A DNA stretch of 64,000 nt from Candidatus Saccharimonadota bacterium (GTDB lineage: Bacteria > Patescibacteriota > Saccharimonadia > QS-5-54-17). Position numbers and translations under genes: made by a program. The stretch spans positions 82,216 to 146,215 of the forward strand of contig JBJHCT010000001.1 of NCBI GenBank assembly GCA_050486185.1, in the 5' to 3' direction. Below, piece by piece: positions 1,724 to 55,853 of the stretch. Each line of letters starts with the position of its first letter. The stretch's first letter is position 1. The notes beneath the pieces were generated by a model. That model saw nothing but the letters and a program-made list of their open reading frames with translations. It made no database searches and was not told the origin of the DNA.

Positions 1724-2953
1724 ATGCTCATGCATAACGACGATCCAGTGGTTGAGTTGAGGCCCTCTAAGTCTAGGAATTTTACCCTAGCCTCAGTAGT
1801 AGCTATAGCCATATTAGTTGGTTCTTTGGGTTTTGTCCTAGGAGCTAATATCAATCAACTAAGCGTAGGTCAATATGATAGTGAAAATGAACACCTACCA
1901 GAAAAACTAGACTATTCCTCAGTAGATAGATTGTACGATCTCTTGCGCCAAAACTATGCCGGAGAGTTGAATTTAGAAGATTTAATGCTAGGTCTCAAAC
2001 AAGGCTTAGTTAGTGCCACGGGGGATCCTTTCACCGAGTATCTAACATCAGAAGAAGCCGAGGAGTTTCGCAGTAGTTTAAACGGCGAATTTAGTGGTAT
2101 CGGTATTGAGATCGGTATTAGAAATAACCAGCTGGTAGTAATCGCTCCCATAACTGGCACTCCGGCCGATAGAGCCGGTCTAAGGGCTGGAGACAAGATA
2201 CTAGCTATAGATAGCGAAGATACTACAGATATGAACCTACAGACAGCGGTAAGCAGTATCAGGGGGGATGAGGGTACGGATGTAGTGCTGAGCATCGGTA
2301 GAAACGGAGAAGATATTCAAGACATCACCGTCACCAGAGGCTTAATAGAGGTCCCTAGCGTTGAAGCAGAGATTTTAGAGGATGGTATTGGTTATATACG
2401 TATTAACCGTTTTGGCGATCATACGGCTAGAGATTTCCGCCAGGCTGCAGCTGGGCTTACAGATGATGGAGTTAGCAGGATAGTGTTAGATATGCGCAAT
2501 AATCCAGGTGGATATTTCGATGCGGCTGTAGCTGTAGCTAGTGAGTTTCTAGAAACTGGAGAAGTTGTGGTTGAGGAAAGACGAGGAGGTGACGTGATTG
2601 CCACTGAACGCGCTAGGAGTAGCGGCAGCCTAATAGGTTTAGAGGTAGTAGTTCTAGTGAATGGTGGTTCAGCTAGTTCATCAGAGATTGTAGCAGGTGC
2701 CCTAGCAGATCATGAAGTAGCTGTAGTCGTTGGTGAACAGACTTTTGGCAAAGGTAGTGTGCAACAGTTAGTAGATGTTGGTGATGGTAGTATGCTTCGA
2801 GTAACTATAGCTAATTGGTATACTCCCAAAGGTCTTAATATTGGTGACGGTGGTATTACCCCTGATGAGGTAGTGGAGATGAGTCAGGAAGATTACGATA
2901 TGGATCGTGATCCACAGCTTCAAAGAGCTATAGAGATATTACTCAACAGTTAA
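1724..2953 (+). CDS. C-terminal processing (tail-specific) S41 peptidase with PDZ domain
   Basis: N-terminal transmembrane anchor. PDZ segment GIGIEIG...ITGTPADRAGLRAGDKILAID. S41 catalytic-region motifs LVNGGSASSSEIVAGAL and FGKGSVQ. Confidence 0.8.
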   Translation: MLMHNDDPVVELRPSKSRNFTLASVVAIAILVGSLGFVLGANINQLSVGQYDSENEHLPEKLDYSSVDRLYDLLRQNYAGELNLEDLMLGLKQGLVSATGDPFTEYLTSEEAEEFRSSLNGEFSGIGIEIGIRNNQLVVIAPITGTPADRAGLRAGDKILAIDSEDTTDMNLQTAVSSIRGDEGTDVVLSIGRNGEDIQDITVTRGLIEVPSVEAEILEDGIGYIRINRFGDHTARDFRQAAAGLTDDGVSRIVLDMRNNPGGYFDAAVAVASEFLETGEVVVEERRGGDVIATERARSSGSLIGLEVVVLVNGGSASSSEIVAGALADHEVAVVVGEQTFGKGSVQQLVDVGDGSMLRVTIANWYTPKGLNIGDGGITPDEVVEMSQEDYDMDRDPQLQRAIEILLNS

Positions 2954-3057
2954 ACCTTAGGGTCTATAGATTCCTGCATTCAAAAATACACTAAACCACC
3001 CCTATTCTCAGCTTTATGTTAATATAGCTGTGTAAGAATCAAAAGAGGAGAGTTGTT

Positions 3058-4653
3058 TTGGCGTCTAAAGATACGAAATACATATTCGTAACAGGTGGAG
3101 TGTTGTCTGGGGTAGGCAAGGGCATTACAGCGGCTTCTATCGGCAGCATACTCAAAAGCACCGGCCTGAGTGTCAATATTCAAAAATGCGATCCATATCT
3201 CAATATGGATGCCGGTACGTTAAATCCAGCTGAGCATGGCGAGGTGTTTGTAACTGCTGATGGGGCTGAGACCGATTTAGATCTAGGCCATTATGAGCGG
3301 TTTTTAGACCAAGAGCTCAACAAGCACAGCTCCTTAATGAGTGGCCGCATACTTAATAGAGTCATCAAAGCTGAGCGAGCCGGTAAATATTTGGGTAAAA
3401 CTGTTCAGATAATTCCGCATGTTACCGACACTATACAGGATGAAATAGAGAAAGCTTCAGAAGGCTATGATGTCCATATTGTCGAGATAGGTGGCACGGT
3501 CGGGGATTATGAGGGCTTGAGTTTTATAGAAGCTATTCGTGAGTTTAAACAACGGGCGGGTAGAGAAAATGTGATGTATGTACATGTGGTATATATGCCT
3601 TACGTGCGAGCTTCTCGAGAGGTCAAGACTAAGCCGGCTCAAAACGCCGTTAGGATTCTTCGAGGCTACGGTATTAATCCAGACGTCTTAGTGGCTAGGA
3701 CTGAGGAAGAGGTCAAAAACGGTATATTAGATAAATTAAGTATGTTTGCTGATGTACCAAAGAGCGGTATCTGTATAGCTCCAACTGTTAGTAGTGTCTA
3801 TGAAGTGCCTTTGATTATGGATGGTATCACCAAGCATTTAGCCACCAAGCTGGGTCTAGAGCTTGGTGATATTGATCTCAAACACTGGAAGAAAGTTATA
3901 TCAGCTGCCAACAACACTTCTTTACCAACTGTAAAAATTGGTGTGGTGGCGAAGTACATGGATCATGAAGATACATACATGAGTGTTTTTGAGGCTGTTA
4001 AGTCAGCTGCCTGGAATGAAGGTTTGAGTCCGGAAATAGTTTGGATAGATGCCGAGAAGGCCGAGAAGAGACTACCTATAAAAGAGTTAGAAAGCTTAGA
4101 TGGTATTGTGGTTCCAGGTGGCTTTGGGTCAAGAGGAGTCGAGGGCAAGATCAGGGTAGCTGATTGGGCAATGAACAACAACAAACCATATTTAGGGCTG
4201 TGTCTAGGCATGCAAGTAGCAGCTATAGCTTTAGCACGTAAGGCGATCGATAGCTCGGCTAATTCTACTGAATTTGATTCTAGTACCAACTGCCCAGTCG
4301 TGAGTTTGATGGAAGAGCAAGAAGATGTGGTAGACCTAGGAGGTACTATGCGACTAGGTAATTGGGAATGTCATCTTGAGCCCAGCTCTATAGTCAGGTC
4401 TCTATATCGAAAAGATGTAATTCTTGAAAGACATAGGCACAGGTATGAGTTCAATAACAAATACAGACAACAACTGGAGTCTGCCGGTATGGTTTTCTCA
4501 GGACTATCTCCAGATAAGAGGTTAGTAGAAGTTATAGAACTAAAAGATCACCCATTCTTTGTGGCTAGTCAGTTCCATCCCGAATATACCTCTAGACCAG
4601 GTAAACCAAATCCGTTATTTAAGGGTTTTATTAAAGCCGCTAAAAGTAAATAA
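3058..4653 (+). CDS. pyrG: CTP synthase
   Basis: TTG start preceded by AAAGAGGAGAG. N-terminus YIFVTGGVLSGVGKGITAASIG. C-terminal glutamine amidotransferase region GLCLGMQ. Confidence 0.95.
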   Translation: MASKDTKYIFVTGGVLSGVGKGITAASIGSILKSTGLSVNIQKCDPYLNMDAGTLNPAEHGEVFVTADGAETDLDLGHYERFLDQELNKHSSLMSGRILNRVIKAERAGKYLGKTVQIIPHVTDTIQDEIEKASEGYDVHIVEIGGTVGDYEGLSFIEAIREFKQRAGRENVMYVHVVYMPYVRASREVKTKPAQNAVRILRGYGINPDVLVARTEEEVKNGILDKLSMFADVPKSGICIAPTVSSVYEVPLIMDGITKHLATKLGLELGDIDLKHWKKVISAANNTSLPTVKIGVVAKYMDHEDTYMSVFEAVKSAAWNEGLSPEIVWIDAEKAEKRLPIKELESLDGIVVPGGFGSRGVEGKIRVADWAMNNNKPYLGLCLGMQVAAIALARKAIDSSANSTEFDSSTNCPVVSLMEEQEDVVDLGGTMRLGNWECHLEPSSIVRSLYRKDVILERHRHRYEFNNKYRQQLESAGMVFSGLSPDKRLVEVIELKDHPFFVASQFHPEYTSRPGKPNPLFKGFIKAAKSK

Positions 4654-16389: not shown

Positions 16390-16980
16390 ATGCCTAATAC
16401 AGATAAACAAAATAATCAAAAACCAAAACAGACCCAAAAGCAGCAGCCTCAAGCCAAGGGCAATAACTACGCCTTTATAGATGGTCAAAACTTGAATATG
16501 GGGGTCCAATCACTTGGATGGAAGCTAGATTACAAGAAGTTTAGAGACTACTTGCAGTCCCAGTTCGGAGTTTCAAGAGCCTATATGTTTGTCGGCTTCT
16601 TAGAGGAGCAGCAGGCACTATATAACGCCTTGCAGGAGGCCGGTTTTATACTAGTGTTTAAGCCTTTGATACGACATGGTGATAGTGAGATTAAGGGCAA
16701 TGTCGATGCTGAGTTAGTCTTGCAGACTATGATAGATATCGATAGGTACGATCAGGCCGTGATTATCACCGGTGATGGAGATTTTGCTGGGTTAATTAGA
16801 CATCTCATGAGTGTCAACAAACTAAAGCAGATTATTATCCCCAACAAAGATAAGTACTCCTCATTATTCGATCGATTAGAGGAATTTGATAATAAGCACG
16901 TTACATACATGAGCGATATTCGTAAAAACGTTGAGTATCCTAGCAGAAGGCGGGGCTATTCTAAGTCTAAAAAGGCTTAG
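16390..16980 (+). CDS. NYN/LabA-like domain protein
   Basis: NYAFIDGQNLNMG...VIITGDGDFAGLI. Confidence 0.7.
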   Translation: MPNTDKQNNQKPKQTQKQQPQAKGNNYAFIDGQNLNMGVQSLGWKLDYKKFRDYLQSQFGVSRAYMFVGFLEEQQALYNALQEAGFILVFKPLIRHGDSEIKGNVDAELVLQTMIDIDRYDQAVIITGDGDFAGLIRHLMSVNKLKQIIIPNKDKYSSLFDRLEEFDNKHVTYMSDIRKNVEYPSRRRGYSKSKKA

Positions 16981-17019
16981 GAGCTAATCAGGTAATTAAT
17001 ATAAGATAAGGAGTTTTAT

Positions 17020-17496
17020 ATGGCGGATACACAGAGACTTTACAGAATCCCTGAAGAAGGCATCATAGCTGGTGTTTGTGCAGGGCTGGGGGATTATTTC
17101 GATATAGACGTGACTTTAGTGAGAGTGGTTTTTGTGGTCATGACTTTTGCTAGTGCTGGCTTTGGAATACTGCTTTACGTGCTACTGGCAATACTAACCC
17201 CAACCAGAGGCTCAGCAGCAGCTAATCAAGCAGGTGGCTCTAAAGATGTTGATGATATCAAAGAGTCATTGCAGGAGATTGGCGATGACTTGCAAGAAGC
17301 AGCCGCTGATGTTAAACGCAGTGTCTCAGCTAATAAAAATAGGTTGCGCAATTACTTAGGAGCCGGTTTAGTGGCTTTTGGTCTATGGCTGTTAGCTAGC
17401 CAGTTTATGCCAGAACTGATTGAAATTAGATGGAACTATATATGGCCTGTGCTATTAATAGCTCTAGGCTTAATGATATTATCAAGGCGTAAGTAG
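17020..17496 (+). CDS. PspC-domain membrane protein
   Basis: LYRIPEEGIIAGVCAGLGDYFDIDVTLVRVVFVV. Confidence 0.75.
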   Translation: MADTQRLYRIPEEGIIAGVCAGLGDYFDIDVTLVRVVFVVMTFASAGFGILLYVLLAILTPTRGSAAANQAGGSKDVDDIKESLQEIGDDLQEAAADVKRSVSANKNRLRNYLGAGLVAFGLWLLASQFMPELIEIRWNYIWPVLLIALGLMILSRRK

Positions 17497-17544
17497 TTTG
17501 AATTAACTAGCAAAAAAAGTATTAGAAAGGAAAGTAGGTAGTGT

Positions 17545-18495
17545 ATGGATAATCAAGATAACCAGGAGAAACCAAAGGCAACTTTTACTACTAGAGCAGC
17601 CGGTTTCATTATGAGTCTAAAGATTGGTCGTCTATTTTGGGGCGGCTTCTTATTATTAGTGGGTACTTTAGCGCTACTGAATAACTTCGATCTAATGGAA
17701 GTGAGGTTCGGTAATCTATGGCGTTTGTGGCCACTAGTAATCGTAGCGATGGGTCTATCGGTACTATCACTTAAAGGCTTGATGGCCAGGTTACTTGCGA
17801 TTCTTTTTGTGCTACTAGCTTTGGCAGGTATATTCATAATGAGTGTTGCCGATGCACAAAGCGGGGAAAATAGAGTTACTACTGCCTCTGTGTCGGTACT
17901 TGATGATATCAATAGCTACGTAGTGTCTTTTAGCGGCGGGGCTGGCTTGATAGATATCTCTAGTCAGTCCCAAGACAATCTTGTAGAGGCTTCTTTAGAT
18001 AGTAATTTTGCAGAGTTAGAGTATGTAACTTCCCAAGAAGGTACTCTGCAGCTAATCGATTTAGAGGCTAAAGGTTCTGAGCGATGGTGGCTAGGTGATT
18101 GGCGCAGCGATTTTAAACTGACACTTTCAGAGTCTATGCCACTTAATTTGAGATTAGATGTTGGTGCTAGTGATATATCGGCCGATTTAAGCAATCTGCA
18201 GGTTGAGAGATTAGACGTTAATGCTGGAGCTAGTAGCATGGATATAACTTTAGGTGATTTAGCAGATAGACTAGATTTCAATCTCAACGTCGGTGCTAGC
18301 TCAATAGATATACGGGTTCCTGAGAGTGTGGGGGTGAGGGTGTCGCTATCTAGCAGTCTAAGTGAGACTAGACTACCTAATCTAGTTGAGGTTAGTGATG
18401 GAGTTTATGAAAGTAGCAACTACGCTGAGGCTGCTCAAAAACTTAACATCAGTGGTAGTAGTGGGGTTTCTAGTCTAAAACTAACCTATTATTAG
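17545..18495 (+). CDS. LiaF-like / DUF4097-type membrane protein with a beta-strand-repeat C-terminal domain
   Basis: N-terminal transmembrane helices, then repeated LDVGASDISADL / VNAGASSMDITL / NVGASSIDIRV units. Sits next to the PspC gene, a typical envelope-stress pairing. Confidence 0.5.
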   Translation: MDNQDNQEKPKATFTTRAAGFIMSLKIGRLFWGGFLLLVGTLALLNNFDLMEVRFGNLWRLWPLVIVAMGLSVLSLKGLMARLLAILFVLLALAGIFIMSVADAQSGENRVTTASVSVLDDINSYVVSFSGGAGLIDISSQSQDNLVEASLDSNFAELEYVTSQEGTLQLIDLEAKGSERWWLGDWRSDFKLTLSESMPLNLRLDVGASDISADLSNLQVERLDVNAGASSMDITLGDLADRLDFNLNVGASSIDIRVPESVGVRVSLSSSLSETRLPNLVEVSDGVYESSNYAEAAQKLNISGSSGVSSLKLTYY

Positions 18496-18578
18496 CATTA
18501 TCTTCAAGGTTGAAGTTTGCAATATGTGTATGACATTTGCTAATATAAGCCGTAAGAATTAAAAGGGGACAAATAAAA

Positions 18579-18872
18579 ATGTCAGTAGTTAAAGTAATCG
18601 GCTTACAGCATCCAAACTCTGAAAATGTACAGATTACCCTAAGTGCAGATGGTAGTGTAGATATACCAAGTTTGGGCGTGTCTGGCTCCGGAACTTTAAT
18701 GGCCGGTTTTACTAACTGGTCAGACTATTACACCGATAATAGTCCAACAATAGACTTTGGTGGTCTATCGGAGAATGTTGACTTCTCTAATGAATACTTT
18801 CCCAAGAACAAAATAGACTTTGCTCTAGGTAATGCAGAGACTGACTTTGGTACCGAGCTACCAGCAGCATAA
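18579..18872 (+). CDS. Hypothetical 97-aa protein sharing an N-terminal QHP..S....I.L.ADGSV repeat with the glycine-rich protein at 29423..30805
   Basis: Strong RBS (AAAAGGGGA). N-terminus MSVVKVIGLQHPNSENVQITLSADGSVDI aligns with MSSKLRVNDIQHPDSNEPNIKLDASGGV / LKHPDAVNPQITMNADGSVNV. Confidence 0.55.
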   Translation: MSVVKVIGLQHPNSENVQITLSADGSVDIPSLGVSGSGTLMAGFTNWSDYYTDNSPTIDFGGLSENVDFSNEYFPKNKIDFALGNAETDFGTELPAA

Positions 18873-18910
18873 TAAAGCCAATTATTTAAGTAACTAACCT
18901 AAATAAAGAG

Positions 18911-18943
18911 ATCTTGCAAATAACAGTTGCAAGATTTTTTATT
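18911..18943 (+). terminator. Rho-independent terminator
   Basis: ATCTTGCAA-ataacag-TTGCAAGAT perfect 9-bp stem followed by TTTTTTATT, directly downstream of the 18579..18872 gene. Confidence 0.7.
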
Positions 18944-19040
18944 GAGGCCTTTTGCATATAGCGTAAGCCTTATCTCTGCACACTCTATATAGCAAGGAAA
19001 CGCTTATGTTCGGTAAAAATTCGTCTGTATAAGTATAGAC

Positions 19041-20882: not shown

Positions 20883-20983
20883 GTATTTAGGCCTTGATAA
20901 AGAGGGTGGGGATAAAGTAATTTTTCCCCAAGGGAAGCTAAAAACAAAAATAAAAACTAATTTTTCAGGAAACAAAAAATAAA

Positions 20984-21340
20984 ATGTATTATTCACAAAC
21001 CATGGCTCAAAGCCGCAGTAGATCAAAGCCAGCTCGCTTACGTCGTAATCGAGACTTTGGCGGTTTCAAAGCTACTAGTGGTATGGGACCGGTAACTTCA
21101 ACGTTATTCTTAGTAGTAATTGCTTCTGTCTTAGCTCTTTTATACCTAACTCAGATCACCAAGACTAGTGTCTATGGTTATCAAATCAACGAGCTCACTA
21201 GTGAGCAGGCAGCTTTGATAGAGGAACAGCAAGAGCTACGCGTAGAAGCTGCTAGACTGCAGTCAGTTGCTCGTATAGAACGTTCGGAAGTTACTTCAGG
21301 CCTTGAGCCGGAGACGAGCGTTTCCTATGACAACCGCTAG
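20984..21340 (+). CDS. ftsL: FtsL-like cell division protein (single transmembrane helix + coiled coil)
   Basis: Position between rsmH and ftsI. Transmembrane helix LFLVVIASVLALLYL, then a leucine-zipper-like coiled coil. Confidence 0.55.
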   Translation: MYYSQTMAQSRSRSKPARLRRNRDFGGFKATSGMGPVTSTLFLVVIASVLALLYLTQITKTSVYGYQINELTSEQAALIEEQQELRVEAARLQSVARIERSEVTSGLEPETSVSYDNR

Positions 21341-23051
21341 AAACAGTCGAATCACCGTCTTAGCTATAGCTTTTTTAGCTATGGCTTTGTTAACTTTAAG
21401 CCGCTTAGTATATCTACAGATTATTAGACACGATCATTTCAGCGTGCTAGCCGCTCAGACCCATAGTCGTAAATTTGAGATTGCTCCACAACGAGGTCAG
21501 ATATATATCCATGATAGGGGTAGACTGGTACCGATGGCTATGAACCGTAATCTGAAGCTGCTCTATGCCGATACTCGCTATGTTTATGATTTAGATGCGG
21601 TAGTTGCGGGTCTGAAGCAGATACTAGGCGAAGACTATAGAGACAAACTAGAGGCGGCCGATGGCTATGTAGCTTTAGAAGATGATATCGATTATCACAC
21701 TGGTCAGGAGATACAAGCTTTAGGTGTATCAGGTATCGGTTTAAGTGATCAGTACAAGAGAGTCTATCCAGAAGGCTCCTTAGCCGCTCAAGTGCTAGGT
21801 TTTGTTAATCGTGACGGTGAGGGCCAGTATGGTATCGAGGGTTGGTTTGACGGAGTTCTAAAGGGCTCTTTCGGTATGTATGATATGGAGACTGATGCCA
21901 ATGGTATACCGATAGCTACTAGTGACAATATTCAGCTAGAACCAGTACATGGTGATGATGTGGTCTTAACACTAGATCGTAATATCCAGGCCAAAGTAGA
22001 GTCAGCCTTAAAAAAGGGCGTAGAAGGTACTAATGCTAAATCAGCCCACGCAGTAATTATGGATCCAAATAGCGGCAGGATGCTAGCTATGGCCAACTAT
22101 CCGACTTATGATCCTAATAAATATAGTGAGGTTGAGGATTATCGTCGCTTTATCAATGTAGCCTCTTCAGAGTTATTTGAGCCTGGATCAGGTTTCAAAG
22201 TCTTTACAGTAGCGGCCGGCCTAGAAGCTGGCGTTATAGATAAGGATGAGACCTTTGATGATAGTAGCGGTCTAGTGAGAGTGGCAGATGCAGTTATTCG
22301 TAATGCCGGTATACCTCATAGTAGCAATCGTTCTATGACGGAGATTATCACCAACTCAGTCAATACAGGAGCGGTTTATGTGCTAGAGAAGTTCGGTAAC
22401 GGCGAGATAAACCTCACTGCTAGAAGGGGGCTGTATGAGTTTTTTGCTAACCGCTTCAAATTAACTGATTCTACCGGTATCGAGCAATCAGGCGAACCCA
22501 ATATGAGTATGGTAGATCCTGAGAGCGTTGGGCCGGTTAATTATGCCAATATCACTTTCGGACAGGGTATTGCTACCACGATGGTACGGATGGTGGCTTC
22601 TATGGCCGGTATTATTAATGGCGGTGATATCTACAAACCATATCTAGTTGATTACCGTATTCAAAACGATGGGGAAGTGGTAACTACGGAGCCTGAGATT
22701 ATGGCTGAAGGTATAGTATCTTCAGAAACCTCAGAAACTATGAGGGAGATGATGGAGACAGTGGTTACCGATGGGGGAGGCTGGAGTATTAACTGGGCGG
22801 TTCCCAATCACAGCGTAGGGGGCAAGACCGGTACGGCCGAGATACCTGGGCCAGATGGTGGGTATTTGAGAGGTCAATATATAGGCTCTTTCATCGGTTT
22901 TGCACCGGTAGATGAACCCAAATACTTAATGATGGTGCGCATAGATGATCCACGGGCTCCAGGATATGCCGGATCCGCCGCCGCCGCCCCCATATTTGCC
23001 GATATCATGGAGTGGTTGGTGCGTTACGGTGGATTGGAGATGGATAGGTAG
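21303..23051 (+). CDS. ftsI: Peptidoglycan D,D-transpeptidase (class B PBP, FtsI/PBP2-like)
   Basis: PBP dimerisation domain. Transpeptidase motifs SGFK (SxxK), SNS-like SxN, and KTGTA. Confidence 0.85.
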   Translation: MSRRRAFPMTTARNSRITVLAIAFLAMALLTLSRLVYLQIIRHDHFSVLAAQTHSRKFEIAPQRGQIYIHDRGRLVPMAMNRNLKLLYADTRYVYDLDAVVAGLKQILGEDYRDKLEAADGYVALEDDIDYHTGQEIQALGVSGIGLSDQYKRVYPEGSLAAQVLGFVNRDGEGQYGIEGWFDGVLKGSFGMYDMETDANGIPIATSDNIQLEPVHGDDVVLTLDRNIQAKVESALKKGVEGTNAKSAHAVIMDPNSGRMLAMANYPTYDPNKYSEVEDYRRFINVASSELFEPGSGFKVFTVAAGLEAGVIDKDETFDDSSGLVRVADAVIRNAGIPHSSNRSMTEIITNSVNTGAVYVLEKFGNGEINLTARRGLYEFFANRFKLTDSTGIEQSGEPNMSMVDPESVGPVNYANITFGQGIATTMVRMVASMAGIINGGDIYKPYLVDYRIQNDGEVVTTEPEIMAEGIVSSETSETMREMMETVVTDGGGWSINWAVPNHSVGGKTGTAEIPGPDGGYLRGQYIGSFIGFAPVDEPKYLMMVRIDDPRAPGYAGSAAAAPIFADIMEWLVRYGGLEMDR

Positions 23052-23264
23052 TGTTTTAACCAAAATCCTTGACACCCCACACACCCAAGGGGTACCATAA
23101 GAAGTAATATAAAAGAGTGTTTTGACTCGACAAAGTAGGATATAAAAACCAAATATTTTTAATGATTGATTTAGCAGTAAATACCAACAGTAGACACTTA
23201 GTAGTCCAAGACGGAGTCTTATTAGCAGTATTACTGACAAGAATAACATCACAAGGTAACCACT

Positions 23265-24368
23265 ATGCCTGATCAAGTCCAACTCAGAGGTGGCACAGAG
23301 TCTGAAAACGATGCTTTCACAGGTAAACAACGTGAAGTCACAGTCGATACTACTAATAACACTCTCAGAGTTCACGATAACTCTACCCTCGGTGGACATA
23401 AACTAGCTACTACTACTTACGTAGACAGTGAAGTAGACGCCCTTACAACCCAAACCAACCAACAGATCGATAACCTAACTCCAGCAGAACCTGACCAACC
23501 AGGATACGTCTATGTACCAGGTAGCTCTAAACACGGTACCTTGCCAGGCTTCTGGGTTATGAAGTACCCAGCTAAAGATGTCGGTGGTGTACCTACCTCC
23601 CAAGCTGAAGGTACCCCCTGGGCATCTATATCCTGGACTGATACTAAAGTCGCTATAGAGCAGCTAGGACCAGGATATCATCTCATCAATGACTATGAAT
23701 GGATGACAATCGCAGAAAACATAGCTGCAACTCCTATCAACAACCAAGACAGCAGTGGCTTCAAACTAGCTAGAGGTCACTCAGATAATAATCCTAGCAA
23801 TGCCATTGAATCAACTGAAGCAGATGAACCAGTAGTCTCAGGTTGTGACTTGACTAAACCTATGGATGATGTAGCTAATGCCTACCAAGCAGGAGTCTGT
23901 GAGATTAGAGGTGATGGCACTGACTCTAAAGGGTATGTTAATACCGGTAACTCTTGGAGTGAGGCTTGGACTACTTTGGGTGGTGGTCAAGAACAACTCA
24001 GAACCCATGTCCTCTCAAACGGTGAAGTACTGTGGGATATAGCGGGGAATACTTGGGAGTGGACCGATGCTTACGTAGTTGAGGTAGATGAGAAGCCAAC
24101 ACCGGTACAAGACTCTTATAACGACTACACCAATATTACTGACTACAAAGGCTTCTCCTACTTAAGACCCTCTAACCCGAGCTGGACTAGAGCCGATAAC
24201 GGCATAGGTAGTGTCCTCACTCATACTTTTACCGGTACCAGAGCCTTCAGGCGCGGAGGCAGCTGGATCACTGCCTCCCACGCTGGTGTCTTTGCCTTGG
24301 ACCTGGTCTACACGCCGTCGCATACGAACTTGGGCCAAGGTTTTCGTGTTGCTTGGTATGCTTCTTAG
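23265..24368 (+). CDS. Phage-tail-fibre N-terminal motif protein with a C-terminal FGE-sulfatase / C-type-lectin-fold domain (Mtd-like architecture)
   Basis: N-terminus VQLRGGTESENDAFTGKQREVTVDTTNNTLRVHDNSTLGGHK matches the conserved tail-fibre N motif. C-terminus has NTWEWTDAY...RGGSW...GFRVAW, the FGE/SUMF1-type fold used by DGR variable proteins. Confidence 0.6.
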   Translation: MPDQVQLRGGTESENDAFTGKQREVTVDTTNNTLRVHDNSTLGGHKLATTTYVDSEVDALTTQTNQQIDNLTPAEPDQPGYVYVPGSSKHGTLPGFWVMKYPAKDVGGVPTSQAEGTPWASISWTDTKVAIEQLGPGYHLINDYEWMTIAENIAATPINNQDSSGFKLARGHSDNNPSNAIESTEADEPVVSGCDLTKPMDDVANAYQAGVCEIRGDGTDSKGYVNTGNSWSEAWTTLGGGQEQLRTHVLSNGEVLWDIAGNTWEWTDAYVVEVDEKPTPVQDSYNDYTNITDYKGFSYLRPSNPSWTRADNGIGSVLTHTFTGTRAFRRGGSWITASHAGVFALDLVYTPSHTNLGQGFRVAWYAS

Positions 24369-24483
24369 ATACTTGGACCTTGGTAAAACCAAGAATGCCA
24401 GGATATACCTGCTGCTAGGCATAAGGGCGTCTTAAGTGGTATAATTCTCCCTAATAGTTACTAATGTTATAAAATAAATATAT

Positions 24484-25521
24484 ATGCAAAATTTAGATTT
24501 ACTTCAGCTTGAACCAGTCATATTAGATATCACAGTTGCAGCTGTTTTGGCTTTTGTAGTCTCTATATTAATTACTCCTGTATATACCCACCTAGCTTAT
24601 AAATACCAAGCCTGGAAGCGAGTCAAAGATACCGCTATTACCGGTGAAAAGGCCAAAATATTTCATAAACTACATGCTGAGAAGCACAAACGAAACATCC
24701 CTACTATGGCCGGTGTAATTATGGTAGCAGCGATTACTTTTGTAACTGTACTTTTCAACCTCTCAACTGCTCAGACATTGCTACCCCTAGCGGCTTTGAT
24801 AGCTGCCGGTGGGGTGGGGCTAATAGATGACTTTATCAATATCAGGGCGCCATCTAAAGGAATTGCCGGTATGCGCTCTCAGATTAAGTTTATATTGATA
24901 CTAATCATAGCCTTATCTATTAGCTGGTGGGCCTACTCTAAGCTAGAGTACACATCCTTATCAGTGCCCTTCTTTGAGGTATTGCCCCTAGGCTGGCTGA
25001 TAGTGCCGCTGTTTACTTTTGTGATAGTAGCTATCGCTAACGCCGTTAATATCACAGACGGTCTAGACGGGTTAGCTGGAGGGCTGCTATCCATAGTATT
25101 TGCAGTCTATACAGTAATTGCTTTAATGCAGGGCAATATCGGCATAGCTATTTATTGTGCTACGGTAGTTGGATCTATGTTAGCTTACACCTGGTTCAAT
25201 ATCTTTCCGGCCCGGTTCTTTATGGGTGATACCGGTTCATTTGCCCTAGGTACCTCCTTGGGCGTAGTAGCACTTTTGACCGACACAGTTCTGCTTTTGC
25301 CGATTATCGCCGGTATGTTTGTCATAGAGGTTAGTTCATCTAGCCTGCAGATACTATCGAAGAAGTATTTCGGTCGGAAGATATTCATCTCAGCACCCCT
25401 GCACCATCACTTTGAGGCTCAGGGTTGGCCAGAGACCAAAGTGACTATGAGATTTTGGATATTAGGCGCTATGATGGCTATTTTAGGCTTAATCATCGCT
25501 GTCTTGGGTGGCCAGCTCTGA
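24484..25521 (+). CDS. mraY: Phospho-N-acetylmuramoyl-pentapeptide transferase
   Basis: NAVNITDGLDGLAGG, 10-transmembrane topology. Confidence 0.9.
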   Translation: MQNLDLLQLEPVILDITVAAVLAFVVSILITPVYTHLAYKYQAWKRVKDTAITGEKAKIFHKLHAEKHKRNIPTMAGVIMVAAITFVTVLFNLSTAQTLLPLAALIAAGGVGLIDDFINIRAPSKGIAGMRSQIKFILILIIALSISWWAYSKLEYTSLSVPFFEVLPLGWLIVPLFTFVIVAIANAVNITDGLDGLAGGLLSIVFAVYTVIALMQGNIGIAIYCATVVGSMLAYTWFNIFPARFFMGDTGSFALGTSLGVVALLTDTVLLLPIIAGMFVIEVSSSSLQILSKKYFGRKIFISAPLHHHFEAQGWPETKVTMRFWILGAMMAILGLIIAVLGGQL

Positions 25522-25585
25522 TTAGACATAAATCCTTTTTAAGATAAAGTATCGAAAATTTTAAATATAAAAAATCAAAAAACAA

Positions 25586-26812
25586 ATGAGTCCAAACAAA
25601 AATACCAACAAATCATCAGGAGCAGGCCGAACCCGTCGACATCGTAGTGACGTTAGTATTATCCTAATCACTCTAGCACTAGTGATATTTGGCTTAGTGG
25701 TAATTTATGCGGTTAGCCCTATCTTGAGTCACAGAATGTCCGGAGATGTTAATCGCAACTTTTTTGTCTATGGGCAACTGCGCAATATGGCTGCAGCCCT
25801 AGTAGCCTTTTATGTAGCTACTAGAATTAAATGGACTAACTGGCAAGATAAATTATTGCCAATACTGATCATTGCCTCCTCAATATCACTAGCTATGACC
25901 TTTATCCCAGGGTTAGCTATTACTCAAGGAGGTGCTACTCGCTGGGTGGGTATAGGTGATTTTAGCTTTCAGCCTTCAGAGCTAGTGAAATTAACAGTTC
26001 TAGTAGCTTTAGCAGCCTGGTTTGCTAAGTTGAAGTCTGAAGAGTTGAGAGATTACAAGAAGACCTTGTTGCCGGTAGCAATTATCGGTGCTTTAGTGGC
26101 CGGTTTTGTACTAATTCATCAACGAGATATGGGCACAATGATTGTTATCGCTGCTGTTATGATGTCGATATTCTATGCTAGCGGAGTTAGTTTAGTTCAA
26201 GTAGGTATACTGCTTTCAGCAGCAGCAGCCTTTTTTGTTGCTAATATCCTGCTATTTGCTCACCGTATGGAGAGGGTGAAAACCTTCTTTAACCCATCAG
26301 AGTCTTTAGGAGAGAGCGGTTATCATCTACATCAAGCCCTCATAGCTGTAGGCTCAGGCGGTCTATTCGGTCTAGGCTTAGGCAAAAGTATTCAAGTGTA
26401 TGGTTATTTGCCCGAAGCAGCCAACGACTCTATATTTGCCATTATTGCCGAGATGTTTGGCTTTGTTGGAGCCTTGTTGGTAATTGTTCTCTTTGCTTTG
26501 TTGATATATCGGATATTAATTGTAGCTAGAGATGCACCTGATAGTTTTGCTCAGCTTCTAGCAGTAGGAGTAGCTGCTTGGTTGGGTGTTCAAGCTAGTG
26601 TTAATATGATGGCTATGATCGGTATTATACCGTTAACAGGTATACCGCTGCCGTTTGTTAGTTATGGTGGTAGTAGCCTAGTGTTTATGATGATAGCATT
26701 AGGTATAGTAGTAAACATATCACGCTACACTGAAAGGAGCATGGTTAATGCGAATAGTACTAGCCGGCGGAGGCAGCGGCGGACACGTCACACCAGTAGT
26801 AGCCGTAGCTAA
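25586..26812 (+). CDS. ftsW: SEDS-family peptidoglycan glycosyltransferase FtsW/RodA
   Basis: Multi-transmembrane protein with SEDS motifs (GxxGLGLG, PEAANDSIFA). Position in the dcw cluster. Confidence 0.85.
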   Translation: MSPNKNTNKSSGAGRTRRHRSDVSIILITLALVIFGLVVIYAVSPILSHRMSGDVNRNFFVYGQLRNMAAALVAFYVATRIKWTNWQDKLLPILIIASSISLAMTFIPGLAITQGGATRWVGIGDFSFQPSELVKLTVLVALAAWFAKLKSEELRDYKKTLLPVAIIGALVAGFVLIHQRDMGTMIVIAAVMMSIFYASGVSLVQVGILLSAAAAFFVANILLFAHRMERVKTFFNPSESLGESGYHLHQALIAVGSGGLFGLGLGKSIQVYGYLPEAANDSIFAIIAEMFGFVGALLVIVLFALLIYRILIVARDAPDSFAQLLAVGVAAWLGVQASVNMMAMIGIIPLTGIPLPFVSYGGSSLVFMMIALGIVVNISRYTERSMVNANSTSRRRQRRTRHTSSSRS

Positions 26813-29422: not shown

Positions 29423-30805
29423 TTAGCCTATACGGTAACGGATGATGACAATGCCGGAGCCGCCATTGCCGGCAACGGCTCCGCGACGACCACCACCCCC
29501 GCCTCCACCGGTGTTTGCCGCCCCATTGCCACCAACAGCCGCCCCTCCACCACCTTCTCCACCTAAGCCTTGCGACCCGCCGTACGAAGCGCCACCACCT
29601 CCACCTCCACGTGCGGTTGCTACTCCGGTAATAGAAGAGGTTAGACCTGCTCCTCCGTCACCACCCTTCGCACTTACGCCGTTCTGTCCCGCTACTCCTG
29701 CGCCACCACCTCCACCGGTAGAATAGTTGGATGATACTGCGTTACCACCGTTCGTACCCTGCCCAATAATGCCAACACCTCCGGTGGCCCCAGTGTTACC
29801 ACCACCACCGCCCGAGCCTCCTTGTGCGTTGCCCCGTTGGGAGCCGTCGCCTCCTTGTCCACCAACAGAAGTGATGGTCGAAAAGCTTGAGTCGCTCCCG
29901 TTGAATCCAGACTCTCCTCCGTTAATACCCCTTGATCCACCGGCACCGACGACGACCGTATGAACACCTTTGCTGATAAAAAATAATGGTTCGGCGACAG
30001 ATGAACCGCCAGACAGCTCACCCACGACAGCACACCGATAACCGCCTGCTCCACCACCTGCCGCAGAAGCGCCATCAGACGAGTCCGCTTCGCCACCCCC
30101 ACCCCCACCGATAACTAGATACTCAACCTCACCAGCGCCAGTAATAACCTCAAAAGATTGTGATGATCCAACTGTTGTGAAGTTATGTATACGGTAGATC
30201 TTGCCATCTATCTCTTCTTCGAAAACTTCATCTCCCCCTGTAGCAAAAAGAGACTGGATAAGTAGGCCGTTTTCGGTTAATACCCACTCATTCTGGGCCC
30301 TTTTTCTAAGTTGAGTTTCACCATACTTTCTAACAAAGTAGTATGGACCAGGAGCAAGAGGGCTTTTGGTACTAACGTTTTGGTTAGCGGTAACGGCTAG
30401 CTTGGCTTCATTATCTCTATATAGAGAGATTTTAGATCCTATCTCAAAGTTAGCCTCACTATCTTGGGGTACTTTAATGGTTACTACTTTGTTCTCATCT
30501 TCATCATCTAGGGTCAGGACTTTGCCAGCATCCTCTAGTGCTAGGGTGTATTCGTTGTTTATATCAGGAGTTAGAGCTTTTTCTTGGGCTATCTGGGTTT
30601 GATTAACACTTTCTTGGGTAGCTAATTCTGTAGGGTCAATTCCAGCTACATTAACACTACCATCAGCATTCATAGTGATTTGTGGGTTTACAGCATCAGG
30701 ATGTTTTAAAGACTTAGCATTTACACCACCTGAAGCATCCAACTTAATATTAGGCTCATTTGAGTCTGGATGCTGAATGTCATTGACTCTTAGCTTACTA
30801 CTCAA
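29423..30805 (-). CDS. Glycine-rich fibre/adhesin-like protein (N-terminal QHP..ADGSV repeats, central beta-rich region, about 200-aa poly-Gly C-terminal domain)
   Basis: N-terminal repeat shared with 18579..18872. C-terminal GGxGGxGG tracts resemble glycine-rich phage minor-tail or fibre domains. Last gene of a co-directional four-gene module. Confidence 0.55.
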   Translation of the reverse strand: MSSKLRVNDIQHPDSNEPNIKLDASGGVNAKSLKHPDAVNPQITMNADGSVNVAGIDPTELATQESVNQTQIAQEKALTPDINNEYTLALEDAGKVLTLDDEDENKVVTIKVPQDSEANFEIGSKISLYRDNEAKLAVTANQNVSTKSPLAPGPYYFVRKYGETQLRKRAQNEWVLTENGLLIQSLFATGGDEVFEEEIDGKIYRIHNFTTVGSSQSFEVITGAGEVEYLVIGGGGGGEADSSDGASAAGGGAGGYRCAVVGELSGGSSVAEPLFFISKGVHTVVVGAGGSRGINGGESGFNGSDSSFSTITSVGGQGGDGSQRGNAQGGSGGGGGNTGATGGVGIIGQGTNGGNAVSSNYSTGGGGGAGVAGQNGVSAKGGDGGAGLTSSITGVATARGGGGGGASYGGSQGLGGEGGGGAAVGGNGAANTGGGGGGGRRGAVAGNGGSGIVIIRYRIG

Positions 30806-51778: not shown

Positions 51779-52636
51779 CTATTTTTTCTTAGAAGCTTTT
51801 TTAGCCTTCTTGGCTTTCTTTGCCTTCTTTTTATCTGATTCATCGTCTTTAGCCTGAGTTTCTGCATCTTGGCTATCATCCCCATCATCGGAGTTTTGGC
51901 TTTGGACTAATTGCTCAATTTCAGCAATTTCTTCAGGAGTAGCTGTCAGCCTGGTCGGCATCGATCCTGAATTATCATCCCCTACATTATCATCGCTCTG
52001 TTCAGTGGGCGCATTTAAATCAGGATTTACTTGATTGATTTGGTTAGTTACAGCTTCCTCTATACCGTTTTGAGATTGAATATCTTGACCAGGAGTTTGA
52101 TCTGGAATTTGAGTAGCGTTATTTTGCGCAGGACCATCGCCATAGCCACCACTAGCATATGAATTAGGAGTATTAGTGTCTGTTGGATTATTCGAATCAG
52201 TGCCATCATTTGTTGCTTCAGCTGCTTGGGTAGCACCTGAAGCTGCTGGAGTATCATCGTTACCTGATACCTCAGCAACCATAGCTTTGACAGTACTAAC
52301 AACATCTTCTAGAGTGATCTGTGACTTAACTAAATATTTATCAGCTCCTAATTTCTCGCCTCTATCTTTATCGGTCTCTTGTGATAGCGCCGATAGCATA
52401 ATAACTTTAGCGTCTTTGGTTTCGGGGGTAGAACGCAAGATATCCAGTACATCAAAACCGCTGATTTTAGGCATCATCACATCTAAGACTATGACGCTGG
52501 GTTTTTCTGCCACCGCCTTAGTTAAAGCCTCTTCCCCATCTGAAGCAGTAACAATATCATAGTTCTCAGCACCTAGCCTAGCTGCATAGATTTCTCGTAA
52601 GTTTATATCGTCTTCTACTAGTAAAACTTTTGTCAT
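51779..52636 (-). CDS. Response-regulator receiver domain fused to an approximately 160-aa low-complexity acidic region with a poly-Lys tail
   Basis: The REC domain is paralogous to 6877..7272 (KISGFDVLDIL..TPET....K..ML.ALSQ..DK.R.E.LGAD.YLVKSQ). The C-terminus ends KKAKKAKKAKKASKKK. Confidence 0.75.
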   Translation of the reverse strand: MTKVLLVEDDINLREIYAARLGAENYDIVTASDGEEALTKAVAEKPSVIVLDVMMPKISGFDVLDILRSTPETKDAKVIMLSALSQETDKDRGEKLGADKYLVKSQITLEDVVSTVKAMVAEVSGNDDTPAASGATQAAEATNDGTDSNNPTDTNTPNSYASGGYGDGPAQNNATQIPDQTPGQDIQSQNGIEEAVTNQINQVNPDLNAPTEQSDDNVGDDNSGSMPTRLTATPEEIAEIEQLVQSQNSDDGDDSQDAETQAKDDESDKKKAKKAKKAKKASKKK

Positions 52637-52641
52637 TGCTT

Positions 52642-54411
52642 TTATTCTACTGTACTTGTGCTTGTTGGCGCAACTATATCACCAGGTTCAGCCGGTACAT
52701 CTTCACCCTTAGCCCGTCTCTCTAGCTGAGACTTTATCTTATTAGCCTGCTCTTGATTGAGCCTAGGCAGAGTAAAGAAGAAGTGACTACCCTGTCCTTC
52801 CCTGCTCTCTACCCAAATACGGCCTTGATAGAGCTCGATGATGGTTCTAGCTAAGTATAGTCCTAGGCCGGTACCACCAATCTCTCTAGTAGCGGTACTA
52901 TCGACTCGGTAGAACTTTTGAAATAGGTGTTTGACTTCATCTTCAGGTATGCCGATGCCTTGATCGTGGACACCAACGGTAACGTATTTATCATCTCCGG
53001 TAATCGAGACGCTAACTTCACCTTTAGGTGTGAACTTTATACCGTTATCTACTAGGTTGGTTAGTACTTCTCTAATTCTCTCAGGATCGGCATTAACGAA
53101 GAATAACGGTAGGACCTGGTTATGGGCTACTGCCGTCTTGTCGTTTGAGGCTTTTAGTTTGAGGCTTAGGTTTTTCTCCTCGGCCTTAAAGCTTAGTTCA
53201 TCGATGACGTTGTTGACTAGCTTGCTCATCTCAAACGGTTCTGGATGGTTGGCCAATCTACCATCTTCGACTTTGGTGATTGATAGGAGGTCTTGGAAGA
53301 GTTTGCCTAGATGTCTGGTTGATTCATAGGCTTTAGTGATATAGTTGCGGGCATTTTCATCAACCTTTGATACCTGCTCATTCATGGCTAGAGATAAAAA
53401 GCCTTCAATTGCGGCCACGGGTGTACGCATCTCATGTGATGCAGTAGAGATAAACTCATCTCGCTGTCTAGCAGTTCTTTTTTCATCGCTAATATCACGA
53501 AACACACCGATAGCACCGGCTATTTGGTTGTCTTTAGAAAATATCGGCGAGGCCACAATCGATAGGTGGATTTTGCGTTTAGCTCGATTCAAAATTATAA
53601 AATCATTGCTCCTAATGCTTGATTTAGTCTTCATAGCTCGCTTGAAAGGGTCATGACCCTCATCAATCTTATTACCCTCTTCATCCTCTAAAGTGATGAC
53701 GTTTTGATAGTGGATGCCGATAGCTTCTTCTTGGGGCCAACCTGAGATAATGCAGGCCGGTCCATTAAATAGCTGGATGACTCCTTCATAATCAATTACT
53801 ACTACCCCATCACCGATACTACGCAGCAAGATATCTGATTTAGTCTGCTCTACCTGGAGTTTTTGCGATAGTTTAGTGACCTGAGTATCACCACTTGTCT
53901 CTTGGGGGTGGTTGCGCCATAGCCATAGACCTAAATATCCAGCTACTCCACTAGCGACAAGAAATACAATGTTATCGAGTAGATACCTCCAAGAATCATC
54001 ACTCAAAAGAGCACTGATAAATAGCATAATGGCGGTGATTGATATATAGATACTCAAGGCAGTTAATCCTAAGACAGCAGATGAGAGGATGATCATCAGC
54101 CAAAAGGCAAAGTAGGCCGAAGCAAAGCCACCAGTAGCAAGTGTTAAGATAGCGATATTGAGGCTAAATAGCCCCATATCTATGGCTGTAGCTATCACCT
54201 GAGACTTTTCATTAACCCATAGTCTAATTAAGGCAAAGTAGATCATATGCACTACAGCTATCCCTAGGTTTAGCGGTGAAGTACCCAGGAGCTCTCCAGG
54301 ACCTAAGAACTGACCCAGCAGTAGAGTTAGGTATAATACGATAATAGCTGCACTACCTATTAGGTAGGTGATTTGCAACCTGCTATATATTTGCTCAGGG
54401 ATATTTTGCAT
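52642..54411 (-). CDS. Membrane sensor histidine kinase (multi-transmembrane N-terminus, PAS, HisKA, HATPase_c)
   Basis: H-box STASHEMRTPVAAI. N/G boxes LTNLVDNGIKFT...GGTGLGLYLAR. Confidence 0.85.
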   Translation of the reverse strand: MQNIPEQIYSRLQITYLIGSAAIIVLYLTLLLGQFLGPGELLGTSPLNLGIAVVHMIYFALIRLWVNEKSQVIATAIDMGLFSLNIAILTLATGGFASAYFAFWLMIILSSAVLGLTALSIYISITAIMLFISALLSDDSWRYLLDNIVFLVASGVAGYLGLWLWRNHPQETSGDTQVTKLSQKLQVEQTKSDILLRSIGDGVVVIDYEGVIQLFNGPACIISGWPQEEAIGIHYQNVITLEDEEGNKIDEGHDPFKRAMKTKSSIRSNDFIILNRAKRKIHLSIVASPIFSKDNQIAGAIGVFRDISDEKRTARQRDEFISTASHEMRTPVAAIEGFLSLAMNEQVSKVDENARNYITKAYESTRHLGKLFQDLLSITKVEDGRLANHPEPFEMSKLVNNVIDELSFKAEEKNLSLKLKASNDKTAVAHNQVLPLFFVNADPERIREVLTNLVDNGIKFTPKGEVSVSITGDDKYVTVGVHDQGIGIPEDEVKHLFQKFYRVDSTATREIGGTGLGLYLARTIIELYQGRIWVESREGQGSHFFFTLPRLNQEQANKIKSQLERRAKGEDVPAEPGDIVAPTSTSTVE

Positions 54412-54537: not shown

Positions 54538-54613
54538 GGCCCCATCGTCTAGTGGCCTAGGACACCAGGTTCTCATCCTGGAAACCGGGGTTCGACTCCC
54601 CGTGGGGTCACCA
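54538..54613 (+). tRNA. tRNA-Glu (anticodon CUC)
   Basis: Hand-folded cloverleaf: acceptor GGCCCCA/TGGGGTC, anticodon stem CCAGG/CCTGG with loop TTCTCAT, T-arm CGGGG-TTCGACT-CCCCG, encoded CCA. Confidence 0.85.
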
Positions 54614-54719: not shown

Positions 54720-55853
54720 ATGCAATTAGGAAATTTCGTCAAACAACCACAAGGCTACAAGGCCTACATTCCTGCTGATTTTCCACCCTCAGAATCACTA
54801 TTGATAACACCAGATATTATTCTAGCTAATGATGCTGCGACTCGTGCACTCAGTAAACTGGATGGAGTGGCTCAGCTAATTCCTGATATTAACTTTTTCA
54901 CCTTTATGTATGTCCGCAAAGAAGCGGCGTTGTCTAGCAATATTGAGGGTACTAAAGCTACTATGCACGACTCCCTAAAGGCGGACATAGAAATAACGGA
55001 AGGTGTACCAAAAGATGTTGAAAATATTACCCACTATATATCTGCACTGAATTATGGTCTTGATCGTCTGAAGGATTTACCCTTGTCAACAAGGTTGATA
55101 AAAGAGATTCACAACAAGCTGATGGCCGGAACCGCTGAAGGTATAGGTAAAACCCCTGGTCAGATTAGAACTTCACAGAACTGGATCAATGGTACTAAAC
55201 CTGAGAATTCAGATTTCGTACCACCTCCTCCAACAGAATTGAGCAGGTGCTTAAAGGATTTCGATACATTTCTCAATACTGAGCAACCCTATACGCCGTT
55301 AGTGCAGGCTGCATTAATGCATGCTCAATTCGAAACAATTCACCCTTTCCTTGACGGTAACGGCAGGACCGGTAGACTACTAATTACGCTACATCTTTGT
55401 AGTACGGGTGTTTTAGAGTATCCAATCTTATATATTTCTGAGTACTTTAAAAAATATAGAGATGTTTACTTCGACAGACTATCAGGTTATCACAACGAAA
55501 GTGACATCAATGGGTGGCTACTATTCTTTTTGGAAGGAATTGAAACTGTGGCCAAGGAAGCAACTATAGTATCTAAAGAAGTTGTCAAGCTGCGTGAGCG
55601 TGATGGAGTAAAAATCCAAAGTTTAGGCGGAAGACAGTCCGAGTCAGCCATGAAATTACTCATGGGGCTATACAGGCAGCCAATAGTTGACGTAGCAACA
55701 GTAGAAAAAATAACAGGTCTTTCTAGACCGGCTGCTAACGCCTTGGTTAAGAAATTTACAGATATTGGAGTACTAGCTCAAGCTGATGAAGACACAAAAT
55801 ACGGACGTGAATTTAGCTATGACGAATATCTAGCTCTCTTCGTAGAAAAATAG
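54720..55853 (+). CDS. Fic-family protein (AMPylase-type Fic/DOC fold) with C-terminal winged-helix domain
   Basis: HPFLDGNGRTGRLL, the canonical Fic motif HPFx(D/E)GNGR. Confidence 0.85.
   Translation: MQLGNFVKQPQGYKAYIPADFPPSESLLITPDIILANDAATRALSKLDGVAQLIPDINFFTFMYVRKEAALSSNIEGTKATMHDSLKADIEITEGVPKDVENITHYISALNYGLDRLKDLPLSTRLIKEIHNKLMAGTAEGIGKTPGQIRTSQNWINGTKPENSDFVPPPPTELSRCLKDFDTFLNTEQPYTPLVQAALMHAQFETIHPFLDGNGRTGRLLITLHLCSTGVLEYPILYISEYFKKYRDVYFDRLSGYHNESDINGWLLFFLEGIETVAKEATIVSKEVVKLRERDGVKIQSLGGRQSESAMKLLMGLYRQPIVDVATVEKITGLSRPAANALVKKFTDIGVLAQADEDTKYGREFSYDEYLALFVEK

Follow-up and report, generated by a model that had tools for sequence, protein, structure and literature searches.

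We analysed a 64-kb stretch of DNA (the window) from a Candidatus Saccharimonadales bacterium, for which the closest named relatives of FtsI share 82% and 63% identity, with attention to the gene that lies between ftsI and mraY in the division and cell wall (dcw) cluster (Table 1). The gene encodes a protein of 367 amino acids, identical to the database protein P0001 on a 264,553-bp NCBI contig, in which the N-terminal Mtd_N module of phage tail proteins is joined to a C-type-lectin-fold (CLec) domain of FGE-like type. The open reading frame (ORF) is present as described in the original prediction, a reading of the letters of the window that had proposed a target of a diversity-generating retroelement (DGR). 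We consider it very probable that the product is a DGR-class variable protein, with a C-terminal variable region (VR) that was shaped by a DGR.

The N-terminal module is recognised by Pfam as Mtd_N (PF18454) with 39.3 bits at residues 5-38 (gathering cut-off 26.3), and the protein aligns over residues 3-52 to positions 3-52 of Mtd from the Bordetella phage BPP-1 (E = 1.2 × 10−8, phmmer against PDB). Residues 1-78 match 54 phage records in tblastn, of which the annotated ones are nearly all tail, baseplate or mtd proteins, and PHROG 9648 ('tail protein') matches the protein as well, so that the tail-fibre signature proposed for the N-terminus is borne out. The likeness to BPP-1 Mtd does not extend through the protein: over the rest of the sequence, phmmer reports a second aligned stretch of only 1.4 bits. 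In the AlphaFold model, which was built from an alignment of 55 homologues and has a mean pLDDT of 83.6, the Mtd_N region is of low confidence (pLDDT <50), and residues 40-69, where the beta-sandwich of Mtd would begin, have no confident modelled structure. From residue 71 onwards, nearly all 10-residue blocks exceed 90, with a lowest value of 83.

For this well-modelled part, the Pfam score for FGE-sulfatase (PF03781) is 20.7 bits, under the gathering cut-off of 23.3, and Pfam alone would leave the predicted FGE/CLec fold below threshold. The fold is nevertheless supported by the AlphaFold model, by Foldseek, which agrees with a CLec fold, and by profile searches, in which the profile of the 55 homologues matches TaqVP (1.1 × 10−5) and FGEs (about 10−4) by sequence. 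The domain is nearest to TaqVP, TvpA and Mtd, all of them DGR variable proteins. Structurally, the CLec domain is nearer to the TaqVP or FGE-like class than to the CLec domain of Mtd itself. The Mtd-like architecture that had been proposed therefore holds insofar as a DGR variable protein is concerned, but not for the type of CLec domain. Identity as an FGE enzyme was also considered and rejected. The protein is related in fold to the FGE/SUMF1 family, but its only cysteines are C194 and C212, with none in residues 330-367, the segment to which we take the FGE catalytic cysteine pair to map; because this C-terminal cysteine pair is missing and the Pfam score is below the cut-off, the protein is not an FGE enzyme.

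Apart from P0002, a close paralogue described below, the relatives of the protein are at most 51% identical and are covered over the CLec domain only. Their N-termini carry prepilin, collagen, fn3 or BppL_N-like domains or have no Pfam match, and among the homologues tested Mtd_N is found only in P0001 and P0002. The nearest CLec homologues with readable genomic context are P0004 (locus L005), P0005 (L006) and P0012 (L007), with 46-49% identity; context is also readable for the Saccharimonadales homologues P0035 (L013) and P0045 (L014). At these five loci, whose homology to the window protein spans the CLec domain at 36-49% identity, genes for bAvd and a reverse transcriptase (RT, Pfam RVT_1) adjoin the target (5/5 homologues that have a cassette and sufficient flanking sequence), and the RVT_1 genes carry the DGR motifs IGNLTSQLFAN and YMDD. 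Mismatches between the template repeat (TR) and the VR fall predominantly on TR adenines, with 17/21 in L005, 13/15 in L006, 9/11 in L007, 18/21 in L013 and 12/13 in L014. Since the five homologous loci have both cassettes and adenine-specific TR/VR mismatches, the CLec domain of the window protein is placed in a family of proteins that are demonstrably targeted by DGRs. A further full-length homologue, P0008 (L015), has no RT in the 3.7 kb downstream. Searches of collections of genome and metagenome contigs returned only distant relatives, with 27-35% identity over the CLec domain (one stretch of 35 residues reaches 50%), and no relative was found in a viral collection of 2.9 million contigs, with 0 matches to exact DNA patterns of the VR scaffold.

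Mapped from the TR/VR extents of the five loci, the predicted VR occupies the extreme C-terminus of the protein, as it does in demonstrated targets. Its scaffold reads AF.RGG.W...S.AGVFAL.L..TPS......GFRVAW, in which R330, G331, G332, G341, F343, L345, L347, G359, F360 and R361 show no or almost no variation in the 55 homologues, and F328, R330, G331, G332, W334, G341, F343, L345, L347, P351, G359, F360 and R361 are conserved between the window and the five TRs. As predicted variable sites we took the 10 codons that read AAY (Y being C or T) in 3 or more of the 5 verified TRs. At these codons the window reads AGC, ATC, ACT, CAC, GAC, GTC, TAC, CAT, AAC and GGC; all 10 have the form NNY, and 9 of the 10 no longer encode Asn (S, I, T, H, D, V, Y, H, N and G). 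Given a gene-wide frequency of 0.63 for codons ending in C or T, the chance expectation of 10/10 is about 0.01 by our own arithmetic. The fraction of A is 0.17 in the VR core (24261-24338) compared to 0.29 in the whole gene, and mismatches of the window to the heterologous TRs are enriched at TR adenines (e.g., 12/23 vs. 12/60 for L014, p = 0.006). At the level of sequence, these comparisons show that the C-terminal patch bears the codon signature expected of adenine mutagenesis from an AAY-rich TR. The placement of the VR between RGGSW and the terminal GFRVA, as originally proposed, agrees with the five homologous TR/VR loci and, codon by codon, with their TRs. The small hairpin downstream of the stop codon, tried as a DGR target-recognition element or a terminator, was given no evidential weight: its stem has 6 bp and the region folds no better than shuffled sequences (z = −0.29).

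The second line of evidence comes from P0002, which is 82% identical to P0001 and absent from the window; the two appear to be paralogues on one 264,553-bp contig. Comparison of the two proteins shows differences at 9 of the 10 predicted variable positions vs. 5 of the 27 others in residues 328-364 (hypergeometric p ≈ 1.4 × 10−4, by our own arithmetic), and these 5 remaining differences all align to A-containing codons of the heterologous TRs. Over residues 333-358 the identity is 12/26, compared to about 84% elsewhere. Both copies keep an identical scaffold, and the flanks TGTRAFRRGG and GFRVAWYA are identical as well.

The Logan contigs of SRR31311414, which match the window at 100%, are the only independent assembly and weak evidence, probably being derived from the same sample or reads as the metagenome-assembled genome. 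Contig L016 corresponds to 20932-23300 and contig L019 to 23271-25860 (junction at 23271-23301), and the break falls immediately in front of base 23301, where codon 13 begins. Residue 13 is the first difference between the paralogues (Ser in P0001, Ala in P0002), and the position of the break suggests that in the SRR31311414 sample the two copies are identical over at least 31 nt at their 5' ends.

No DGR component was found alongside the gene. A repeat search and blastn (word size 7, query 24100-24420) revealed no TR in the 64 kb, the best match being 33 nt at 73%; a scan for Y[AVILMC]DD found no RT ORF with a YxDD motif in the window; and when 4 DGR RTs and 5 Avds of the related loci were compared with the window by tblastn, no match fell below E = 0.17. 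The absence of an RT and a TR from the window that had been noted at the outset thus stands, and it extends to Avd. When the L014 RT was compared with the protein database (8,000 candidates scored), none of the best 120 of more than 4,306 matches lay on a contig of 264,553 bp, a coverage that speaks neither for nor against an RT there. Because TR, RT and Avd are all missing from the window, the gene is either a non-adjacent or an orphaned target.

Several features of the cassettes at the related loci deserve mention in their own right. In 4 of the 5 loci, frameshifts or stops in the vicinity of motifs 2-4 break the RT frame, despite clean adenine-specific TR/VR mismatches (Table 1), and the frames are intact in L007 and L001/L009; the interruptions could be due to assembly error, decay or something programmed. 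In L013 (1-3008), the target on the forward strand and the TR (2892-3008, in VR orientation) flank Avd and RT genes on the opposite strand, a layout in which transcription of the TR would have to diverge from that of the RT. In GCA_035546815.1, a syntenic Saccharimonadales genome (L014, 7901-16020), a DGR cassette consisting of a collagen-CLec target, RT, TR and bAvd lies between S41 peptidase/CdiA_C-like genes and pyrG. The equivalent genes are adjacent at 1724-4653 of the window with no DGR between them, and the position of the DGR is hence not conserved within the order.

To place the gene in its genomic context, we compared the window with GCA_040876815.1 (L017), the relative with 63% FtsI identity. 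The two are collinear, in the order histidine kinase, RecO, class II tRNA synthetase, NYN, mraZ, rsmH, ftsL-like gene, ftsI, mraY, ftsW, murG, ftsQ, type IV coupling protein and sigma factor. In L017, ftsI and mraY are separated by a spacer of 52 bp, and the segment 22954-24469 of the window (about 1.5 kb) has no counterpart there. The promoter-like site that precedes mraY, with the extended −10 element TGGTATAAT, delimits the insertion on its 3' side; the equivalent place in the 52-bp spacer reads TGTTATAAT, and the mraY-proximal extended −10 is thus retained. The consensus scan from which this site and the sigma-70-like site upstream of the gene were taken detected 5 sites, compared to 3.5 expected. 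Because ftsI and mraY are only 52 bp apart in L017, the alignment shows a lineage-specific insertion of a single gene between ftsI and the mraY promoter. The original prediction was right to place the gene between ftsI and mraY, but not in assigning it to the slot of murE and murF, which in this lineage are not located there: replacement of these genes is rejected, given the adjacency of ftsI and mraY in L017 and the lack of a Mur ligase among the window ORFs scanned. A GC content above that of the neighbours, which had also been claimed, is not meaningful, as the gene has 0.46 compared to 0.42-0.49 in the flanks, and GC anomaly was accordingly rejected as a sign of foreign origin.

Table 1. 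Coordinates of the features discussed (positions in the window unless a locus is named)
Feature	Position	Strand	Basis or remark
ftsI (penicillin-binding protein transpeptidase), upstream flank	21303..23051	+	Pfam Transpeptidase 7.6 × 10−63 and PBP_dimer; collinear with L017
Upstream intergenic region of inserted segment	23052..23264	+	No DNA homology to L017
Sigma-70-like site TTGACA-18-TACCAT	23069-23098	+	Consensus scan only
Gene for Mtd_N + FGE-like CLec protein	23265..24368	+	367 amino acids; coordinates include the stop codon; ORF list
Mtd_N domain (phage tail-protein N-terminal module), residues 5-38	23277..23378	+	Pfam PF18454
FGE-like CLec domain, residues ~70-367	23472..24365	+	
Predicted VR, residues 327-367 + stop	24243..24368	+	Mapped from TR/VR extents in L005, L006, L007, L013, L014
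Predicted hypervariable codons, residues 333, 335, 336, 339, 346, 348, 349, 353, 355, 357	24261..24338	+	TR AAY alignment
Further probable hypervariable codons, residues 337, 350, 354, 356, 358	within 24261..24338	+	
Small hairpin CTTGGT-AAA-ACCAAG, 11 nt past stop codon	24379..24393	+	Minimum free energy and centroid folds
Promoter-like site before mraY, extended −10; 3' limit of insertion	24416..24445	+	Consensus scan
mraY, downstream flank	24484..25521	+	Pfam Glycos_transf_4 2.7 × 10−33; collinear with L017
PspC-domain protein (segment 16927-19001)	17020-17496		
LiaF/toast-rack-like membrane protein (segment 16927-19001)	17545-18495		
97-amino-acid ORF (segment 16927-19001)	18579-18872	+	
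Interrupted RT frame, L005	2116-3193		
Interrupted RT frame, L006	5016-5904		
Interrupted RT frame, L013	1703-2819	-	
Interrupted RT frame, L014	11916-13048		

Comparison with known systems indicates which parts of this arrangement are familiar. The Mtd_N module is common to the window protein and Mtd of BPP-1 (PDB 1YU0), the prototype DGR variable protein. However, Mtd belongs to a phage tail module with avd, TR and brt adjacent, whereas the window gene lies in a chromosomal dcw cluster with none of these next to it, and after residue 70 comes a domain of about 300 residues that belongs to the larger FGE/TaqVP type, with negligible similarity to Mtd past the N-terminus. The window protein is not an orthologue of Mtd; by analogy, it would work like Mtd, TaqVP and TvpA. 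TaqVP of Thermus aquaticus (PDB 5VF4) and TvpA of Treponema denticola (PDB 2Y3C) are variable proteins of cellular DGRs, with an FGE-like CLec domain and a known cognate TR and RT, which, unlike the window protein, lack Mtd_N. A parallel in the VR is provided by the DGR targets of the candidate phyla radiation (CPR, Patescibacteria) at the five loci described above, of the class RGGxW...AGVF(A/T)L.L..P......GFRxA, which have the same scaffold with the variable positions in register. These targets directly adjoin bAvd, TR and RT, which the window gene does not, and have no Mtd_N, which P0001 and P0002 do. DGRs of the CPR form a known CPR-restricted clade, DGR clade 2 (Roux et al. 2021, PMC8144416). 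The class of protein is already known, DGRs and CLec-fold targets being abundant in CPR bacteria; what is unusual is an Mtd_N-type target in the non-phage context of a dcw operon and, if confirmed, the targeting in trans of two paralogues in a CPR genome.

Beyond its assignment as a DGR-class variable protein, we regard it as an even call whether a DGR elsewhere in the genome still acts today on the gene as a non-adjacent target, which is the likeliest of the explanations considered. The phage Mtd-like N-terminal module is fused to an FGE-like CLec domain, in which residues 333-358 (about 26) would form the ligand-binding patch. The cassette of TR, RT and Avd would lie elsewhere on the chromosome, most likely beside P0002, and one cassette could serve both copies, given that P0002 apparently shares the 264,553-bp contig. 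The TR RNA would be reverse-transcribed with misincorporation at adenines, and the resulting mutagenised cDNA would retrohome in trans, as in known non-adjacent DGR targets, to replace 24243-24368 and rewrite some 10-15 surface residues of the CLec binding site. The predicted outcome is a binding protein that can be rewritten, with attachment to the host cell or to another surface as a plausible role. The cognate TR is expected to be about 120-130 bp long and about 75-85% identical to the VR, reading roughly AF.RGGNWNN.SNAGVFALNLNNTPSNTN.N.GFRVAW.

A more elaborate scenario, which we advance tentatively and hold to be a real but lesser possibility, is that an episymbiotic Saccharimonadales bacterium domesticated a phage receptor-binding protein of the Mtd_N + CLec type and that this was duplicated, with one copy inside the division and cell-wall operon. 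A single DGR at a distance from this copy, either more than 23 kb upstream of it or more than 39 kb downstream, would then hypermutate both copies in trans. DGR targets in non-adjacent and remote positions have been described, but were not found in CPR in a 2018 survey (PMC5758913). If true, the scenario would thus combine a CPR DGR that has non-adjacent or remote targets with a non-phage target of Mtd type, neither of which that survey found in CPR.

Several observations weigh against an active DGR acting on this gene. Any cassette must be at least as distant as just stated, since a TR, an RT and an Avd are all missing from the window; the placement of P0002 on the same contig derives only from both proteins being reported on the 264,553-bp contig; the VR in the Logan contig L019 is identical to that of the window and assembled unbroken, with no population heterogeneity visible; and identity between P0001 and P0002 falls to 56-72% (windows of 25 amino acids) from residue 265 on, well before the VR begins, so that ordinary fast evolution of a binding domain contributes to a divergence that spans the whole C-terminal third. 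These observations are in part those that would be expected of a relic, in which a DGR once wrote the VR, the cassette was then lost or inactivated, and the gene now encodes a fixed CLec-fold binding protein under ordinary mutation and selection. Also consistent with a relic, which we think quite possible though less likely, are the 16% divergence of the paralogues outside the VR, because of which the duplication would be old and the VR differences need not be recent, the lack of a nearby RT in the case of P0008, and the broken RT frames of 4/5 cassette loci, which fit frequent decay, or assembly error. On the other hand, the ORF is uninterrupted and every scaffold residue is intact, the identical scaffold and flanks of P0002 would follow if both copies are still homogenised by one TR, and the lack of a cassette from 64 kb carries little weight in a genome of which the single known contig alone measures 264,553 bp.

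Two other explanations were considered. An ordinary CLec or FGE-like adhesin that was never a DGR target, with a C-terminal likeness to VRs owing to shared fold ancestry only, would agree with the sub-threshold Pfam score, with the lack of DGR components nearby and with the existence of FGE-like CLec domains without DGRs in EgtB, PvdO and PorK. It would leave unexplained, however, why NNY codons occur at 10/10 positions that are AAY in five verified TRs, why the differences between the paralogues concentrate at exactly those positions (9/10 vs. 5/27), why the VR is depleted in A and why it lies at the extreme C-terminus with the scaffold of the family, like that of demonstrated targets; we accordingly consider it very unlikely. 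Even less probable, in our view, is a phage gene, that is, the tail-fibre tip of a prophage or its remnant that serves phage tropism, as Mtd does in BPP-1. The Mtd_N module, the matches to tail proteins in 54 phage records and to PHROG 9648, and the finding that Mtd-domain targets are nearly all flanked by phage genes (Wu et al., PMC5758913) are in its favour. Yet both flanks are housekeeping dcw genes, collinear with L017 at the DNA level with only about 1.5 kb extra; Pfam scans of window ORFs with 150 or more amino acids yielded no integrase, RT or phage structural gene; and no relative was found in the 2.9 million viral contigs. A prophage is rejected on the basis of the collinear flanks and the lack of phage genes among the scanned ORFs.

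The reading of the gene as a DGR-class variable protein has some consequences for how such targets are recognised. A stand-alone target can be identified as DGR-written from its codon register, by means of heterologous TRs and a paralogue, where DGR finders anchored on the RT would miss the gene within this window. Mtd-domain targets have previously been taken as evidence of association with phages; here, the context is strictly chromosomal and housekeeping. If the cassette is distant and active on both paralogues, non-adjacent targeting would extend to CPR, and the protein would be a candidate for host attachment by an episymbiont.

Other parts of the window also differ from L017 or contain proteins reminiscent of phage tails. 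A second window-specific segment, 16927-19001, lies between the NYN gene and mraZ, where L017 has only about 200 bp; its genes are listed in Table 1. A Gly-rich protein of 460 amino acids (29423-30805, reverse strand) is encoded between ftsQ and the gene for the type IV coupling protein, with matches to Pfam Gly_rich_2 (4.4 × 10−22), to PHROG 2295 (6 × 10−49) and, more weakly, to tail-fibre PHROGs, and with a local GC content of up to 0.59; the equivalent place in L017 is without a called gene and shows no match at the DNA level. The motif L.HP.S.N..I.L.ADGSV occurs twice in the N-terminus of this protein and is found again in the 97-amino-acid ORF of the second window-specific segment (BLASTP E = 2 × 10−6). 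The two proteins could represent a second family of phage-tail-fibre-like surface proteins near the dcw cluster. Further downstream, a gene of the Fic/DOC family (54720-55853, forward strand) adjoins the only tRNA gene of the window, a tRNA-Glu with anticodon CTC (54538-54613, forward strand), and several genes for PAS-histidine kinases and response regulators are located nearby (51779-54411 and 56686-58176).

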